In this document: piece by piece, positions 4,355-9,096 of the stretch
Position numbering within the stretch: the first letter of the stretch is position 1
Layout: every line of letters begins with the position of its first letter
Source of the DNA: a phage
Reading direction: 5' to 3' (one strand)
Sequence record: PZ295659.1
Length of the DNA stretch: 64,000 nt
Translations under genes and position numbers: made by a program
The notes under the pieces: generated by a model
The model's database searches: none
What the model was told of the DNA's origin: nothing
What the model saw: the letters and a program-made list of their open reading frames with translations, nothing else

Positions 4355-7300
4355 ATGGCTACTTTAAAACAAATACAATTTAAAAGAAGCAAAACTGCAG
4401 GAGCACGTCCTGCTGCTTCAGTATTAGCCGAAGGTGAATTGGCTATAAACTTAAAAGACCGTGTACTTTTTACCAAAGATGACCAAGGAAATATTATTGA
4501 TCTGGGTTTTGCTAAAGGTGGTAGTATTGACGGGAATGTTATTCATACTGGCAATTATAACCAGACTGGCGATTATACTTTAAATGGCACCTTCACTCAG
4601 ACAGGTAATTTTAATTTAACTGGTATTGCTCGAGTAACTCGCGATATTATTGCCGCCGGGCAGATTATGACCGAAGGCGGAGAACTTATTACAAAAAGTT
4701 CAGGTACAGCACATGTTCGTTTTCATGATTCAGCTGATCGTGAACGTGGCATTATTTACGCACCGGCTAATGATGGATTAACTACGCAAGTAGTTAATAT
4801 CCGCGTTCAAGACTACGCCGCTGGTGATGAAAGCACCTATGCATTTTCAGGCAGTGGTCAATTTACTTCACCTGAAGTATCGGCATGGAAATCTATGTCA
4901 ACTCCTCAGATTTTGACTGACAAAGTCATTACAGACGGGAAGAAGGCCGGTGATTATGACATCTATTCATTAGCAAATAATAATTCTAACACAGATAAAA
5001 ATAATTTACGTGTCGTACGTACCGACCCAGCGGCCGCAATGCTCCATGAAATTTGTGAAAATAACGGTATCAGTTGGTATTCCGGTTCAACCCCTACTGA
5101 TTATATGTTGTCTTTTGCTTATTCCGGTGGTTTTCAAGCAGGTCATTCGATTGCAGTAGGTATGGAATCAGGGCCTTTGACATATTCAACCTTAGGTAAA
5201 GGTTCTATTGTTCTTGGTGATAATGATACTGGGCTAAAATGGCATCAGGATGGATATTATTTCAGCGTCAATAATGGAACGAAAACATTTTTATTTAGCC
5301 CTAGCGAAACAACTAGCCTAAGAAAATTTGTAGCTGGATATTCTACTAGCGGAACCGATTTAACGACTCCTCCGACAGAAAACTACGCATTAGCCACTGT
5401 TGTTACTTACCATGATAATAACGCGTATGGAGATGGTCAGACTCTTTTAGGATATTATCAAGGCGGTAATTATCATCACTATTTCCGCGGTAAAGGTACC
5501 ACAAACATTAATACTCATGGCGGTTTGTTAGTGACTCCTGGTAATATTGATGTTGTTGGTGGTTCGGTTAATATTGACGGCCGCAACAATGCATCTACTC
5601 TGATGTTCAGAGGAAATACAACAGGATGGAGTTCAGTTGATAATATGACTATCAGCGTTTGGGGTAATACCTTTACTCATATTGATAGCGTCCGTAAAAA
5701 CGTAATGGAAATATCTGATGCCACTAGCTGGATGAGCTATATTCAAAGACTTACTACTGGTGAAGTAGAAATGAACGTCAATGGTTCATTTGAATCATAC
5801 GGTGTTACTGCTGGAAATAGTGGAGTTCACACAACAGGCGAAATTTCATCTGGAGCAGTGAATGCTCTTCGTATTTGGAACGCAGATTATGGAGCCATTT
5901 TTAGACGTTCAGAAGGAAGTCTTCATATTATTCCAACTGCTTATGGTGAAGGTAAACATGGTGATATCGGTCCACTTCGCCCGTTTAGTATGGCTTTAGA
6001 TACCGGTAAAGTTACTATTCCAGATTTACAATCAAGTTATAATACGTTTGCTGCTAACGGTTATATTAAATTTACTGGTCATGGCGCAGGCGCTGGTGGT
6101 TATGACATTCAATATGCTCAAGCGGCTCCTATTTTCCAGGAAATTGATGATGATGCTATAAGCAAATATTATCCTATTGTTAAACAGAAGTTTTTAAATG
6201 GTAAAGCCGTTTGGTCTTTAGGTACTGAGATTAGTTCAGGTACATTCGTTATTCATCATCTGAAAGAAGATGGTTCACAAGGCCATACGTCTCGTTTTAA
6301 TCAAGACGGTACTGTTAACTTCCCGGGTAATGTTCTGGTCGACGGTGATATTAACATGAAAGGCGTGATGACTTTTGACGCCGGACGTTTAGGATCACGA
6401 GATTATTTTAAATTTAACCATTGGGGTGATAGTAATAATGCTCGTGATAACATCATCCAGTTAGAAGATAGTCAAGGCGCTCATTTTTCCACTGAACGTA
6501 CTTTAGCGACAGGTGCAATTAAAACTCGTTTCTTTGGCGAAACATTTACTGATGGTACATTATACCTAAATCAGATGAATAATAGCTCTGAACGATTCCA
6601 TATCAATAATTGGGGAAATTCAGAAGCTGGTCGCGCGGCAGTGATGGAAGTCGGTGATTCCAAAGGTTATCACTTCTATACTGAACGCAGGACAGATAAC
6701 AGTTTGAATTTTGATGTTGGTGGCAATTTTACTGTGCATGGACCTAGCGGGATCACTATCAAAAACTCTGCTGGCGCTCGCCACATCTGGTTTAGAGATG
6801 ATAGCGATGCAGAAAAGGCTGTTATCTGGGCTACAGATGATGGTATTTTACATATACGAAATAATCATGGGGGTCCATTTAGTCATCACTTCCAGGGTGC
6901 AATGATTCTAGCGGGAGAGCGTGTTCCATATAATAGTGAATACGCTCTTATCCGTGGTAATATTTCCGGTGGTGCATGGGTAGACTGGCGAGATCGTCCG
7001 GCTGGATTGTTGGTAGACTGTCAGGACTCACGAAATCAAGCATATAACATTTGGAAAGCTACTCATTGGGGCGAACAGCACATTGCGGCGATGGGTGTTC
7101 ATGCTGGTGGCGGTAATCCTCATGTTGTATTGCATGTTGGTGGGAGTGATTATGCATTTGGATTTAACGGTGATTTTACTGCTGGCGCTGCTGTATATTG
7201 TAACGACGTTTATATTCGTTCTGACCGTCGTCTGAAAATTAATGTTGAAGACTACGAAGAGAATGCGGTAGATAAGGTAAATAAACTCAAAGTTAAAACC

Positions 7301-7573
7301 TATGATAAAGTTAAATCTCTTTCTGACCGCGAAGTTATCGGCCATGAGATTGGTATTATCGCACAGGATTTGCAAGAAGTATTACCGGAAGCTGTTAGCA
7401 CTTCTAGTGTCGGATCTCAGGATAACCCAGAAGAAATTTTAACAATTTCTAACTCTGCTGTGAACGCGCTTTTAATTAAGGCCATTCAGGAAATGAGCGA
7501 AGAAATTAAAGAATTGAAAACGCCTCTCTTTACTAAAATTGCTCGCAAAATTAGTAAATATTTTAAATTCTAA
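4355..7573 (+). CDS. 37: Long tail fibre distal subunit gp37 with C-terminal intramolecular chaperone domain
   Basis: 1072 aa; N-terminus MATLKQIQFKRSK...AASVLAEGELAINLKDR as in T4 gp37; C-terminus carries SDRRLKINVEDY and GIIAQDLQEVLPEAV. Confidence 0.9.
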   Translation: MATLKQIQFKRSKTAGARPAASVLAEGELAINLKDRVLFTKDDQGNIIDLGFAKGGSIDGNVIHTGNYNQTGDYTLNGTFTQTGNFNLTGIARVTRDIIAAGQIMTEGGELITKSSGTAHVRFHDSADRERGIIYAPANDGLTTQVVNIRVQDYAAGDESTYAFSGSGQFTSPEVSAWKSMSTPQILTDKVITDGKKAGDYDIYSLANNNSNTDKNNLRVVRTDPAAAMLHEICENNGISWYSGSTPTDYMLSFAYSGGFQAGHSIAVGMESGPLTYSTLGKGSIVLGDNDTGLKWHQDGYYFSVNNGTKTFLFSPSETTSLRKFVAGYSTSGTDLTTPPTENYALATVVTYHDNNAYGDGQTLLGYYQGGNYHHYFRGKGTTNINTHGGLLVTPGNIDVVGGSVNIDGRNNASTLMFRGNTTGWSSVDNMTISVWGNTFTHIDSVRKNVMEISDATSWMSYIQRLTTGEVEMNVNGSFESYGVTAGNSGVHTTGEISSGAVNALRIWNADYGAIFRRSEGSLHIIPTAYGEGKHGDIGPLRPFSMALDTGKVTIPDLQSSYNTFAANGYIKFTGHGAGAGGYDIQYAQAAPIFQEIDDDAISKYYPIVKQKFLNGKAVWSLGTEISSGTFVIHHLKEDGSQGHTSRFNQDGTVNFPGNVLVDGDINMKGVMTFDAGRLGSRDYFKFNHWGDSNNARDNIIQLEDSQGAHFSTERTLATGAIKTRFFGETFTDGTLYLNQMNNSSERFHINNWGNSEAGRAAVMEVGDSKGYHFYTERRTDNSLNFDVGGNFTVHGPSGITIKNSAGARHIWFRDDSDAEKAVIWATDDGILHIRNNHGGPFSHHFQGAMILAGERVPYNSEYALIRGNISGGAWVDWRDRPAGLLVDCQDSRNQAYNIWKATHWGEQHIAAMGVHAGGGNPHVVLHVGGSDYAFGFNGDFTAGAAVYCNDVYIRSDRRLKINVEDYEENAVDKVNKLKVKTYDKVKSLSDREVIGHEIGIIAQDLQEVLPEAVSTSSVGSQDNPEEILTISNSAVNALLIKAIQEMSEEIKELKTPLFTKIARKISKYFKF

Positions 7574-7579
7574 CAACAA

Positions 7580-7597
7580 GGGGGAAATGCCCCCTTT
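7580..7597 (+). terminator. GC stem-loop (GGGGG-AAAUG-CCCCC) plus UUU after the gp37 stop
   Basis: 5-bp G/C stem with 5-nt loop and trailing TTT between gp37 and gp38; function (terminator or RNA stabiliser) not established. Confidence 0.35.
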
Positions 7598-7609
7598 GGA
7601 GTATAAATT

Positions 7610-8389
7610 ATGGCAGTAGTTGGAGTTCCTGGCTGGATTGGAAGTTCAGCCGTAAATGAAACGGGCCAGCGCTGGATGAGTCAAGCAGCTGGTCAATTAA
7701 GATTGGGTGTTCCTTGCTGGATGAGTCAATTTGCAGGTCGCTCAAGAGAAATTATTCACACACTTGGAGCAGACCATAACTTCAATGGTCAATGGTTCCG
7801 AGATAGATGTTTTGAGGCAGGTAGTGCACCTATAGTGTTTAATATCACCGGAAATTTAGTATCATATAGTAAAGATGTTCCTTTATTCTTTATGTATGGC
7901 GATACACCAAATGAATATGTTACTTTGAATATTCATGGTGGAGTTCATATGTGGGGACGAGGTGGTAACGGTACTGTAAACGGAAACCCGGGCACAAATG
8001 GCGGCGACGTAATCCAAAATGATATTGGCGGAAGACTTCGTATTTGGAACTATGGCGTTATTGCATCAGGTGGTGGCGGTGGCGGTGCAGTGTCATTACA
8101 GAATAGCTGGGCGCCAAATGCTACAGCAGGGGGCGGTGGTGGTAGACCATTTGGCATCGGCGGTGGCGGCGTTAATTGGCCGGGTGGTAATGCTAGTTAT
8201 GACTCCCCAGGCGGTGCCGGTTACACTTCCCAATTCGGCGGAGGCAATGGCGGTGATGCTGGAGGTCGTGGCGGAGATGGATGGGGTAATCACTTATCTA
8301 GATCTGGTGGTGGTGCTCCTGGCAGAGCAGTATTCGGAAGTTCACCGTCATGGGGTGCTACAGGCACAATCTACGGCTCCTGGATTTAA
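7610..8389 (+). CDS. 38: T2/T6-type tail fibre adhesin gp38 with glycine-rich motifs
   Basis: 259 aa; N-terminus [22 protein letters not shown]... and several poly-Gly blocks characteristic of T2-type gp38; SD ggag before ATG. Confidence 0.85.
7954..8323 (+). repeat. Simple-sequence GGN (glycine codon) tracts within gp38
   Basis: Runs such as ggtggtggcggtggcggt and ggcggtggcggc encoding [20 protein letters not shown]; locally GC-rich in an AT-rich genome. Confidence 0.7.
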
Positions 8390-8407
8390 ACGATAATACC
8401 TCTCAAT

Positions 8408-8415
8408 TATAAATA
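8408..8415 (+). promoter_or_regulatory. T4-type late promoter TATAAATA upstream of holin t
   Basis: Exact TATAAATA 22 nt upstream of the ATG at 8437, SD gggagagg in between. Confidence 0.65.
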
Positions 8416-8436
8416 TTGATAAATGGGAGAGGTAAT

Positions 8437-9096
8437 ATGGCAGCACCAAAAGTATCATTTTCGCCTAGTGATATTTTATTTGGGTTGCTAGACCGCATTT
8501 TCAAAGATAACGCCTCTGGAAATATTCTTATTTCAAGAGTTGCTGTTGTAGTTCTTTTGTTCCTAATGGCACTAATATGGTACAAAGGGAATATTTTTAT
8601 GGATTATTATGTGAGGTCTAAATATGATACTTACACAGAAGTAATTCAAAAAGAAAGAAATACACGATTTGAATCTGCGGCTTTAGAGCAACTACAAATA
8701 GTCCACGTCACATCAAGGGCGGATTTTAGTTCGGTGTATTCTTTCAGACCTAAAAATCTAAATTATTTCGTCGACCTTATTGCGTATGAAGGTAAGTTAC
8801 CTAGCACAGTAACTGAAAAATCTATGGGAGGATTTCCTGTTGATAAAACGACAGCAGAATATTCGGTCCATTTAAGTGGACTTCACTTTACTTCTAAAAC
8901 AGATTTTGCTTTCTTACCTACCAAATCAAAAACTCCGGAACTGGCGTATATGTATAGTTGTCCTTACTTCAATTTGGATAACATATATGCGGGAACTGTT
9001 TCTATGTATTGGTATAAGGGGTCGGATGTGTTAAATGAAGAACGCTTGGCTGCAATATGCAACCAAGCAGCAAGGATATTAGGGCGGGCTAAATAA
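8437..9096 (+). CDS. t: Holin t
   Basis: MAAPKVSFSPSDILFG..., single TM segment, C-terminus AARILGRAK matching remembered T4 holin; ATG at 8437 preferred over the upstream TTG at 8416. Confidence 0.9.
   Translation: MAAPKVSFSPSDILFGLLDRIFKDNASGNILISRVAVVVLLFLMALIWYKGNIFMDYYVRSKYDTYTEVIQKERNTRFESAALEQLQIVHVTSRADFSSVYSFRPKNLNYFVDLIAYEGKLPSTVTEKSMGGFPVDKTTAEYSVHLSGLHFTSKTDFAFLPTKSKTPELAYMYSCPYFNLDNIYAGTVSMYWYKGSDVLNEERLAAICNQAARILGRAK

Follow-up and report, generated by a model that had tools for sequence, protein, structure and literature searches.

A glycine-codon-rich, GC-rich stretch in a T-even-like coliphage belongs to a T2-type gp38 adhesin and probably encodes a conserved scaffold for receptor loops

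Does a run of glycine codons in the gene for a surface-recognition protein mark a hypermutable locus or a structural element? The question is raised by gene 38 (7610..8389, + strand; 259 aa plus stop) in a phage DNA window of 64,000 nucleotides (record PZ295659.1), where the first-pass annotation had described an adhesin with glycine motifs encoded by slippage-prone GGN repeats. The reading favored here, with a probability of roughly 0.93, is that the gene encodes a monomeric T2-type gp38 in which a conserved polyglycine-II (PGII) glycine scaffold holds variable receptor loops, with OmpF as the likely receptor.

Identity and genomic setting of gene 38

The protein matches both adhesin profiles over their full length and above the curated cut-offs, PF05268 (GP38) at aa 47-259 (3.9e-83; 279 bits against a cut-off of 25; profile positions 1-218 of 218) and PF21721 (Gp38_N) at aa 1-42 (1.4e-20; 73.5 bits against a cut-off of 25; profile positions 1-40 of 40). 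Sequence matches in the PDB to the gp38 proteins of PP01 (9v85, 1.2e-73) and S16 (6f45_D, 1.5e-47) also bear out the initial naming of the gene as a gp38 adhesin. Matches to gene 38 occur in 430 phage records, the best at 97.5% nucleotide identity, and a public protein 99% identical to gp38 (P0001) heads a cluster of 123 sequences, with RB51, RB68, phiC120 and FL31 among its members. The close relatives SQ17, Bp7 and RB69 are annotated as encoding a T4-type assembly chaperone, a protein absent from the virion, and many database records carry the name 'long tail fiber assembly catalyst'. Such a role is most improbable here, as the Pfam scan (E <= 0.01) returns only the adhesin families PF05268 and PF21721, a result on which the chaperone annotation is rejected, while the sequence and predicted fold match crystallised fibre-tip adhesins and the gp37 of this phage has its own S74 intramolecular chaperone. 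The RB69 and Bp7 records themselves note that the 'gp38' of the T2 subfamily is an adhesin unrelated to the T4 chaperone.

Gene 38 lies between gene 37 (4355..7573, +), whose product is the distal subunit of the long tail fibre and carries an intramolecular chaperone at its C terminus, and the holin gene t (8437..9096, +; Pfam Phage_holin_T, 5.2e-89). The gp37 protein matches Pfam Peptidase_S74 at aa 956-1014 (1.3e-14) and Gp34_trimer, and its translation shows the motif DVYIR/SDRRLKI, in which the cleavage site (slash) is the one predicted for the fPS phages (PMC7917993). This canonical order 37-38-t is also found in SQ17, Bp7, RB69, fPS-2, FL33 and ChristianSchoenbein. The first 25 kb of the window are 96.3% identical to phage ChristianSchoenbein, whose record is classed as Mosigvirus, over 100% of their length, and the genome is most probably that of a Mosigvirus-like, T-even-like coliphage. 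A scan for promoters and terminators around gene 38 returned nothing above shuffle expectation on the + strand, and a hairpin lying between genes 37 and 38 has a z-score of -1.57, short of significance. As a protein, gp38 is an ordinary and well-known T2-type tail-fibre tip adhesin that brings nothing new and advances no open question; published descriptions of its architecture date from 1987-1989 and those of its structure from 2018 (PMC3157838, PMC6851490, PMC12892980).

Domain map and predicted fold

The AF2 model of gp38 (pLDDT 86.9) has the three-domain fold of this family, comprising a helical attachment domain, a beta-helix and a PGII sandwich. Searched against the PDB with Foldseek, it retrieves 9v85_C (E 7.7e-26; TM 0.90, rmsd 1.9 A) and 6f45_D (E 1.5e-20; TM 0.83), and no other fold below E = 4. 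DSSP leaves the residues of the glycine clusters in the model unassigned, and the PGII geometry proposed for them derives from the homologous structures. Among the homologues, T6 gp38 has five glycine-rich motifs (GRMs) and four hypervariable segments (HVSs), all essential (PMC3157838), S16 gp38 has ten PGII helices and five distal loops (PMC6851490), and PP01 gp38 has loops A-E with a described OmpC interface (PMC12892980).

By analogy with these proteins, gp37 would trimerise and shed its C-terminal chaperone, after which the N-terminal helical domain of gp38 would cap the fibre tip. The remainder of gp38 would form a beta-helix, and two excursions from it (aa 116-132 and 153-238) would make up a three-layered sandwich of PGII helices, the glycine motifs being those helices and the segments between them forming distal loops A-E that contact the receptor. 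Glycine would be needed because PGII helices pack backbone to backbone via main-chain hydrogen bonds, and this packing would place both residue identity and tract length under strong purifying selection. Nothing was found that contradicts this explanation.

[quoted passage not shown] Its residues W9, W22 and W37 are conserved in the family and align with the three Trp 'prongs' of S16 gp38, which have a role in plugging into the gp37 tip (PMC6851490). The first part of the central beta-helix domain (aa 47-115; 7748..7954, +) is modelled as strands at 48-115 with pLDDT 93-96 and superposes on 9v85 and 6f45. It is followed by the specificity domain (aa 116-238; 7955..8323, +), recognised from glycine content, alignment and fold match as a predicted PGII sandwich of about ten glycine clusters with loops A-E between them, a domain type described in PMC6851490 and PMC12892980.

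Within the specificity domain, GRM1 (GRGGNG, aa 116-121; 7955..7972, +) opens with a GRGG that is identical in 118 of 118 aligned homologues and is followed by HVS1 (TVNGNPGTN, aa 122-130; 7973..7999, +), which falls in variable gapped columns 134-155 with 19 sequence types and is equated with PP01 loop A by sequence alignment and PMC12892980. Residues 131-152 (8000..8065, +) comprise GG131-132, again present in 118 of 118, and a conserved beta-helix rung with model strands at 135-152. GRM3 (S-GGGGGG, aa 153-159; 8066..8086, +) is the equivalent of the central PGII helix 3 of S16, and its six-glycine core is kept at unchanged length in at least 112 of 118 sequences. HVS2, or loop B (aa 160-173; 8087..8128, +), is the most variable segment, with 20 sequence types; model pLDDT falls to 68 here, and its nucleotide sequence is 100% identical to that of RB69. 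GRM4 (aa 174-185; 8129..8164, +) contains a GGGGGRPFG found in 105 of 118 and leads into HVS3, the loop C region (aa 186-199; 8165..8206, +; gapped variable columns 214-234), where PP01 loop C aligns to aa 186-190 (PMC12892980).

The following segment (aa 200-209; 8207..8236, +) joins a PGGAG cluster, of which P200 and G201 are conserved and the remainder variable, to loop D (YTSQF, aa 205-209), mapped via the PP01 alignment. The clusters GGGNGG and GGRGG (aa 210-222; 8237..8275, +), with G212, G214, G215, G218 and G221 conserved at 90% or more, precede HVS4, or loop E (aa 223-232; 8276..8305, +), which occupies variable and gapped columns 261-284; loop E of PP01 (N225-S231) aligns to aa 225-231 (PMC12892980). 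This loop contains ATCTAGATCT (8296-8305), the site of a 6-nt tandem duplication in phage SQ17. The last glycine cluster (GGGAPG, aa 233-238; 8306..8323, +) is also the place of the longest perfect period-3 tract of the gene, TGGTGGTGGTG (8305-8315). The C-terminal strands (aa 239-259; 8324..8386, +; model strands 241-255) are predicted to close the beta-helix, and A240, V241, G243, P246, W248, G252, I254, Y255 and G256 are conserved there.

Composition, conservation and length of the glycine tracts

The stretch at 7954-8323 corresponds to codons 116-238, in which 47 of the 123 residues are glycine (38%, against 12% in residues 1-115). The four glycine-rich motifs listed in the first-pass annotation all lie where it placed them in the frame 7610..8389 (+), with GRGGNGT at 7955-7975, GGGGGGAVS at 8069-8095, the third at 8129-8170 and the fourth at 8237-8287. 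Its description of the DNA as locally GC-rich likewise holds, at a GC fraction of 0.562 against 0.375 for the whole window, and none of the 370-nt stretches in the 64 kb is richer in GC (z = 6.3; reached by 0.009% of windows). G at codon positions 1 and 2 accounts for the excess, and position 3 stays at about 65% A+T.

Two open frames overlie the glycine region, 8019..8396 (+, 125 aa) and 8096..8293 (-, 65 aa), whose lengths of 125 and 65 residues are what could recommend them as real overlapping genes. That possibility is vanishingly small, as among 17 relatives the + frame stays open for anything between 36 and 127 aa, with interruptions in three of them (L007, L008 and L012), and the translation of 8019..8396 is a low-complexity string of V and A. 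Since strings of GGN-GGN are free of stop codons in all six frames, such open frames are an arithmetic by-product; the overlapping-gene reading is rejected on this ground and for lack of conservation of the frames among relatives, in agreement with their earlier description as spurious.

The conservation pattern was read from an alignment of 118 homologues, each representing a cluster at 90%. Forty-one columns are at least 90% glycine with at most 4% gaps, and the glycine pattern is not a product of chance. Of the columns aligned over aa 116-238, 49 are conserved, at a mean entropy of 0.12 bit, and 113 are variable, at 1.53 bit; all gapped columns (49 of 49) fall between columns with at least 90% glycine. 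The view of the glycine motifs as a scaffold separating short variable segments is upheld by this alternation, and the variable loops, for which an alignment of related phages had been proposed, map between the motifs. The same annotation had held that an invariant gp38 among phages with different receptors would speak against its reading; gp38 varies between such phages. Beneath the constant protein the DNA is diverse, with 15 haplotypes for each of GRM3 and GRM4 in 16 genes at identical codon count, and an average of 3.0 different codons in the invariant-glycine columns. Invariant tract length together with scrambled synonymous sites indicates that the tracts are the most constrained part of the domain.

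These observations bear directly on the proposal that the GGT/GGC runs resemble a contingency locus, expanding and contracting by slippage so as to vary the adhesin and with it host range rapidly. In its favour, GGN codons abound in the region, and Tandem Repeats Finder reports one short array, GGTGGC x2.7 (16 nt, 8072-8087, within GRM3), which is all that answers at the DNA level to the 'repeats' of the earlier description; at its lowest score threshold over 7400-8600 the program gives only two trivial matches. Perfect tandem tracts reach at most 11 nt at period 3 (3.7 units) and 16 nt at period 6 (2.7 units), and homopolymers at most five G. In contingency tracts of short period the repeat count is usually no lower than about 6-8 units. 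When the gene's own glycine codons were reassigned randomly in 5000 synonymous shuffles, the observed values matched expectation, with nine adjacent identical glycine codons (8.5 +/- 2.3 in shuffles), a longest period-3 tract of 11 (10.7 +/- 2.1; attained in shuffles with P = 0.53) and a longest period-6 tract of 16 (12.5 +/- 1.9; P = 0.07). The shuffles reveal neither enrichment nor avoidance of repeats, and selection against DNA repeats in the glycine tracts, also considered, is unsupported by them.

Length polymorphism gives the same picture. No indels occur in the polyglycine tracts of the 118 representatives, within three clusters of more than 90% identity (40 sequences), or in the full-length gene matches with at least 88% nucleotide identity. 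A spread of glycine-run lengths from 4 to 9 could be taken for slippage and proves to consist of in-register substitutions at flanking positions 153, 160 and 161. The family has one glycine indel, IHGG against IHG at aa 110-111, seen among close relatives and located outside the polyglycine domain and outside 7954-8323, which indicates that the gain or loss of a single glycine is not strictly excluded at every position. Elsewhere in gene 38 slippage does appear to take place, as the only clean in-frame indel in the full-length matches with at least 88% nucleotide identity is a duplication of ATCTAG in loop E of SQ17 (LSRS in the window, LSRSRS in SQ17). In T6, removing single GRMs is lethal for adsorption (PMC3157838). 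Slippage of the glycine runs as a source of host-range variation is therefore very improbable; the tracts are invariant in length, their perfect tandem DNA is short, and variation sits in the loops.

How, then, do the loops vary? A published model (Tetart/Krisch; cited in PMC3157838 and PMC12032242) holds that the conserved GRMs are also DNA recombination hotspots that shuffle individual HVSs between co-infecting phages. Gene 38 is indeed mosaic, with RB69 showing 56% nucleotide identity to the window in codons 1-46 and 94-100% thereafter and relatives L005-L008 the reverse, and some loop types have several partners (HVS1 type 1 occurs with HVS2 types 1, 3, 6 and 11). Loops were typed by single linkage at 70%, an arbitrary threshold, in the 118 proteins that represent clusters at 90%. 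In a four-gamete test on this set, every loop showed 15-30 incompatibilities with the N-terminal domain, and none arose in ten of ten loop-by-loop comparisons. The attachment domain thus recombines independently of the loops, and the specificity domain behaves as one cassette in this sample of 118. Further against shuffling at the GRMs, synonymous scrambling leaves little exact DNA identity between alleles in GRM3 and GRM4, and recombinants from RB5 x RB32 crosses carried essentially the whole HVS set (PMC3157838). Exchange of single loops at the glycine motifs consequently appears rather unlikely for this gene.

Judged from the alignments, loop variation probably arises by substitution, by cassette exchange and, in one observed case, by a non-glycine tandem duplication, and host-range change in the family would proceed through loop substitutions and small indels together with exchange of the whole specificity domain, not through slippage of GGN runs. 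A more speculative proposal, which we hold to be unlikely and slightly more so than single-loop exchange, is that the true micro-slippage site is the ATCTAG(ATCT) repeat of loop E (8296-8305), whose length variants could tune OmpF/LPS recognition, and that in natural populations the five loops are passed on as one co-adapted cassette, in contrast to the one-by-one shuffling at glycine motifs put forward in the classical model. For the reading of T-even genomes, a GC-rich island of glycine codons would signify a rigid structural scaffold, the PGII sandwich, and is not to be taken as hypermutable.

Receptor assignment and comparison with known gp38 systems

The alleles with known receptors that served as references are RB69, fPS-2 and FL33, used in place of the closest whole-genome relative, ChristianSchoenbein (Bas46). 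Over aa 116-259, one or two substitutions separate the window protein from RB69 and fPS-2, and about four separate it from FL33. RB69 needs OmpF, FhuA and LPS core (PMC3157838), fPS-2 needs OmpF and LPS core (PMC7917993), and FL33, FL34 and FL31 depend on OmpF (PMC12032242). Since the loops nearly match those of RB69 and fPS-2, at one or two substitutions, and resemble those of FL33 closely, the porin OmpF is the most likely receptor, with a contribution from the LPS core. A position at the fibre tip of the virion and binding to an outer-membrane receptor are likewise suggested by the near-identical alleles of RB69, fPS-2 and FL33/FL34. The published receptor phenotypes in this allele group differ in their co-requirements (FhuA, TolC, LPS), and some of these may reflect indirect effects on the level of OmpF. 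Placement of this allele in the OmpF-recognising group helps to predict the host range of the phage, a purely practical use.

The OmpF-type allele group comprises RB69, RB51, phiC120, ChristianSchoenbein (Bas46), fPS-2 and FL33, and differs from the window by few substitutions, for example at I183 (L) and S199 (A). The gp38 genes of SQ17, ChristianSchoenbein, fPS-2 and FL33 are 91-97.5% identical in nucleotide sequence and 98-100% in protein, SQ17 having two extra residues (SR) in loop E. RB69 gp38 shares 91% protein identity, with 95% nucleotide identity over nt 87-780 and nearly identical loops; its N-terminal attachment domain is a different one, shorter by two residues. The likeness to the simple-sequence contingency loci of bacteria and phages is superficial, consisting of the clustering of like codons within a gene for surface recognition, and unlike such loci gene 38 is without a long perfect repeat, copy-number polymorphism or an excess of repeats over codon shuffles.

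Among the crystallised adhesins, the receptor-binding domain of PP01 gp38 (9V85) shares the beta-helix and PGII sandwich (model TM 0.90, rmsd 1.9 A), with 63% identity over 218 columns and all glycine motifs conserved. Its loops A-E differ in sequence and by one-residue indels, and its receptor is a different one, the OmpC of O157 (PMC12892980). The S16 gp37-gp38 tip complex (6F45; Dunne et al. 2018; PMC6851490) gives a full-length match at 45% identity and TM 0.83, with the three N-terminal Trp residues, ten glycine clusters and five distal loops in common. The S16 protein differs by ten residues in length and in its loops, and binds Salmonella OmpC. Its partner is likewise a gp37 with an S74 intramolecular chaperone, with DLNVS/S around the cleavage site in S16 against DVYIR/S here and in the fPS phages (PMC7917993), and docking of gp38 on gp37 in the present phage would follow the mechanism known from these homologues.

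Identity and surroundings of gene 38

Gene 38 (7610..8389, + strand) encodes a protein of 259 amino acids and comes out as a T2-type gp38 adhesin in every sequence, fold and synteny test applied. The adhesin identity proposed by the first-pass annotation is borne out by matches to the Pfam families PF05268 (GP38, 3.9e-83, over the full profile) and PF21721 (Gp38_N, 1.4e-20). Two structure entries also match: 9V85 (1.2e-73), the receptor-binding domain of PP01 gp38, and 6F45 chain D (1.5e-47), the gp38 of S16 solved together with gp37 as a tip complex. An AlphaFold2 model made with 88 homologues has a mean pLDDT of 86.9 and recovers the same two entries from the PDB with TM scores of 0.90 and 0.83, respectively, and no further PDB fold, the next match having E > 4. 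The gp37 gene (4355..7573, + strand) lies upstream, and its product has in its C-terminus (7215-7573, gp37 residues 956-1072) a Peptidase_S74 intramolecular chaperone preceded by DVYIR/SDRRLKI, the cleavage point predicted by Salem et al. (PMC7917993) to expose the gp38 docking surface; the predicted autocleavage/gp38-docking junction is the same as that of the Yersinia fPS phages. Holin t (8437..9096, + strand) follows downstream.

Gene 38 has matches in 430 phage records (best SQ17, 97.5%), and at the protein level a 99%-identical sequence heads a public cluster with 123 members, RB51, RB68, phiC120 and FL31 among them. Escherichia phage ChristianSchoenbein, whose record is classed as Mosigvirus, is 96.3% identical over 100% of the window's first 25 kb. 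The label "long tail fiber assembly catalyst" found in many database records was inherited from T4 gp38, an unrelated protein, as the RB69 and Bp7 record notes point out. Genes 37 and 38 are separated by 36 nt, within which a GC-rich hairpin (AAGGGGG-AAAUG-CCCCCUU, 7578-7596) lies directly upstream of the gene 38 ribosome-binding site GGAG; its fold energy does not differ significantly from that of shuffled sequences (z = -1.57). Past the gene 38 stop and ahead of the holin start, TATAAATA (8408-8415) represents the T4 late-promoter consensus, and a predicted late promoter is annotated at the equivalent place in fPS-2.

Composition and repeat content of the glycine-rich stretch

The range 7954-8323 corresponds exactly to codons 116-238, where glycine makes up 47 of 123 residues (38%) versus 12% in residues 1-115. 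The four glycine motifs quoted earlier are all present on the + strand in the gene 38 frame, as GRGGNGT (7955-7975), GGGGGGAVS (8069-8095), a 14-residue motif (8129-8170) and a 17-residue motif (8237-8287), and glycines fall into clusters at residues 116-121, 128-132, 153-159, 174-178, 184-187, 192-193, 200-204, 210-215, 218-222 and 233-238. The proposed local GC-richness is also real, as the 370-nt stretch has a GC content of 0.562 versus 0.375 for the window (z = 6.3), the highest of any 370-nt stretch in the 64 kb. The island is an effect of amino-acid composition, since the excess is made up of G in the first two codon positions and the third is about 65% A+T, as elsewhere in the genome. 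Spurious open frames, noted before, do exist in other frames (8019..8396, + strand, 125 aa; 8096..8293, - strand, 65 aa) and are an arithmetic by-product of GGN strings, which contain no stop whichever of the six frames is read; the open stretch in the frame of the former ranges from 36 to 127 residues across 17 related genes.

Repetitiveness of the DNA is slight. The sole Tandem Repeats Finder report at the lowest threshold is GGTGGC x2.7 (16 nt, 8072-8087), the longest perfect tracts of period 3 and period 6 are 11 nt (8305-8315) and 16 nt, and the longest homopolymer is five G. When the glycine codons of gene 38 were re-dealt among its own glycine positions in 5000 shuffles, there was no excess of adjacent identical glycine codons (9 observed vs 8.5 +/- 2.3) or of period-3 tract length (11 vs 10.7 +/- 2.1), and the longest period-6 tract (16 vs 12.5 +/- 1.9) was reached by 7% of shuffles. 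In all three respects tested (length of perfect tandem repeats, copy-number polymorphism among close relatives, and repetitiveness beyond what the protein requires), gene 38 differs from a slippage-prone simple-sequence tract.

Constraint on the glycine tracts and variation in the loops

Within the specificity domain, constraint is strongest on the GGN tracts, which are not a source of variation. Aligned by MAFFT, the query and 117 cluster representatives share identical GRGG and GG131-132 in 118/118 sequences, with the six-glycine core at residues 154-159 present in at least 112 and GGGGGRPFG in 105. Forty-one columns are at least 90% glycine with at most 4% gaps, and the gapped columns of the aligned region, 49 in number, all fall between these. 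The longest glycine run per homologue varies from 4 to 9 because flanking residues at positions 153, 160 and 161 are substituted in register, and aligned strings with differing runs, e.g., GGGGGGGGYSQANNWA, are all equal in length. No polyglycine-tract indels are found in three clusters of >90% identity (40 sequences), where the sole glycine indel is HGG/HG at residues 110-111, outside the polyglycine domain. This IHGG versus IHG polymorphism (7937-7942), which belongs to the beta-helix domain and precedes the polyglycine region, recurs in the gp38 family and within one of the clusters. Among 16 related genes, the six glycine codons of glycine-rich motif (GRM) 3 and the nine codons of the GRM4 core GGGGGRPFG each have 15 DNA spellings at constant codon number, with 3.0 codons used on average per invariant-glycine column; spellings scrambled in this way indicate ample mutational opportunity with protein sequence and length held fixed. 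The view of these tracts as slippage-prone generators of variation is thus not supported by three independent tests, which show no repeat excess, no tract indels in the sequences compared and varied spelling at fixed length. Polyglycine type II helices would pack via main-chain hydrogen bonds, leaving space for neither side chains nor shifts in register, which would explain why both glycine and tract length are fixed.

Variation is instead concentrated in the four hypervariable segments (HVS1-HVS4), where relatives that are 58-94% identical to the window in GRM1 and GRM4 drop to 17-57% nucleotide identity. A glycine scaffold separating variable segments stands as proposed; slippage in the GGN tracts as the route to variation is not supported. 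Full-length gene matches with nucleotide identity of 88% or more show just one clean in-frame difference in length, in SQ17 (L015, 301-1086), where a tandem duplication of ATCTAG at window 8296-8305 (ATCTAGATCT) gives LSRSRS in place of LSRS. Alignment to PP01 (PMC12892980), with N225-S231 at residues 225-231 and Tyr230 at S230, places it in receptor loop E. Slippage-type events thus appear to occur in gene 38, but in a non-glycine loop. The Bp7 gene (L016, HQ829472, 301-1092) carries two 1-nt deletions relative to window 8270-8389, which put its annotated C-terminus (...RYLWLLVIIRKY) out of frame and beyond the normal stop, and it is the richness in GGN alone that keeps this frame open; the deletions probably reflect a sequencing error or an inactive allele.

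A sharp mosaic boundary follows the N-terminal attachment domain (7610-7747 vs 7748-8389). In nucleotide identity to the window, RB69 (L017) stands at 56% in codons 1-46 and 94-100% beyond. The pattern is the opposite in four other relatives (L005-L008), with 91-95% across the N-terminal domain and 21-57% across the loops. In a four-gamete test of the 118 proteins, N-terminal type against each loop type gives 15-30 incompatibilities and 10/10 loop-by-loop comparisons give 0. By this rough test (70% single-linkage threshold, representatives clustered at 90%), the specificity domain moves as one cassette in the sample, in agreement with crosses between RB5 and RB32 by Trojet et al. (PMC3157838), in which host range passed with essentially the full HVS set.

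Receptor and comparison with known adhesins

Residues 116-259 differ from those of RB69 and fPS-2 by one or two substitutions and from FL33 by about four. RB69 needs OmpF, FhuA and the full LPS core (PMC3157838), OmpF and the LPS core serve fPS-2 (PMC7917993), and FL33, FL34 and FL31 are OmpF-dependent and also TolC-dependent (PMC12032242). By homology to these adhesins, OmpF is the most likely primary receptor.

The substance of the finding can all be found in earlier literature, and alleles almost identical to this one are publicly available; the small additions are the explicit negative slippage test, the loop-E ATCTAG duplication and the absence of a loop-by-loop recombination signal in the sample. 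A division into constant glycine-rich and hypervariable regions goes back to work by Henning's group in 1987-1989, who suggested a core of glycine bearing omega loops (cited in PMC3157838 and PMC12892980). The five GRMs and four HVSs were defined by Trojet et al., who found that T6 no longer adsorbs when any tested GRM or HVS is deleted (PMC3157838), and the PP01 structure defined loops A-E with a role in OmpC/LPS binding (PMC12892980). S16 gp38 attaches through a helical N-terminal domain bearing three Trp prongs, followed by a five-ring beta-helix and a sandwich in which ten polyglycine type II helices (>50% glycine) are stacked in three layers, with five distal hypervariable loops (Dunne et al., PMC6851490). 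The ten glycine clusters and three conserved Trp residues (W9, W22, W37) of the present gp38 parallel the ten helices and three prongs of the S16 protein.
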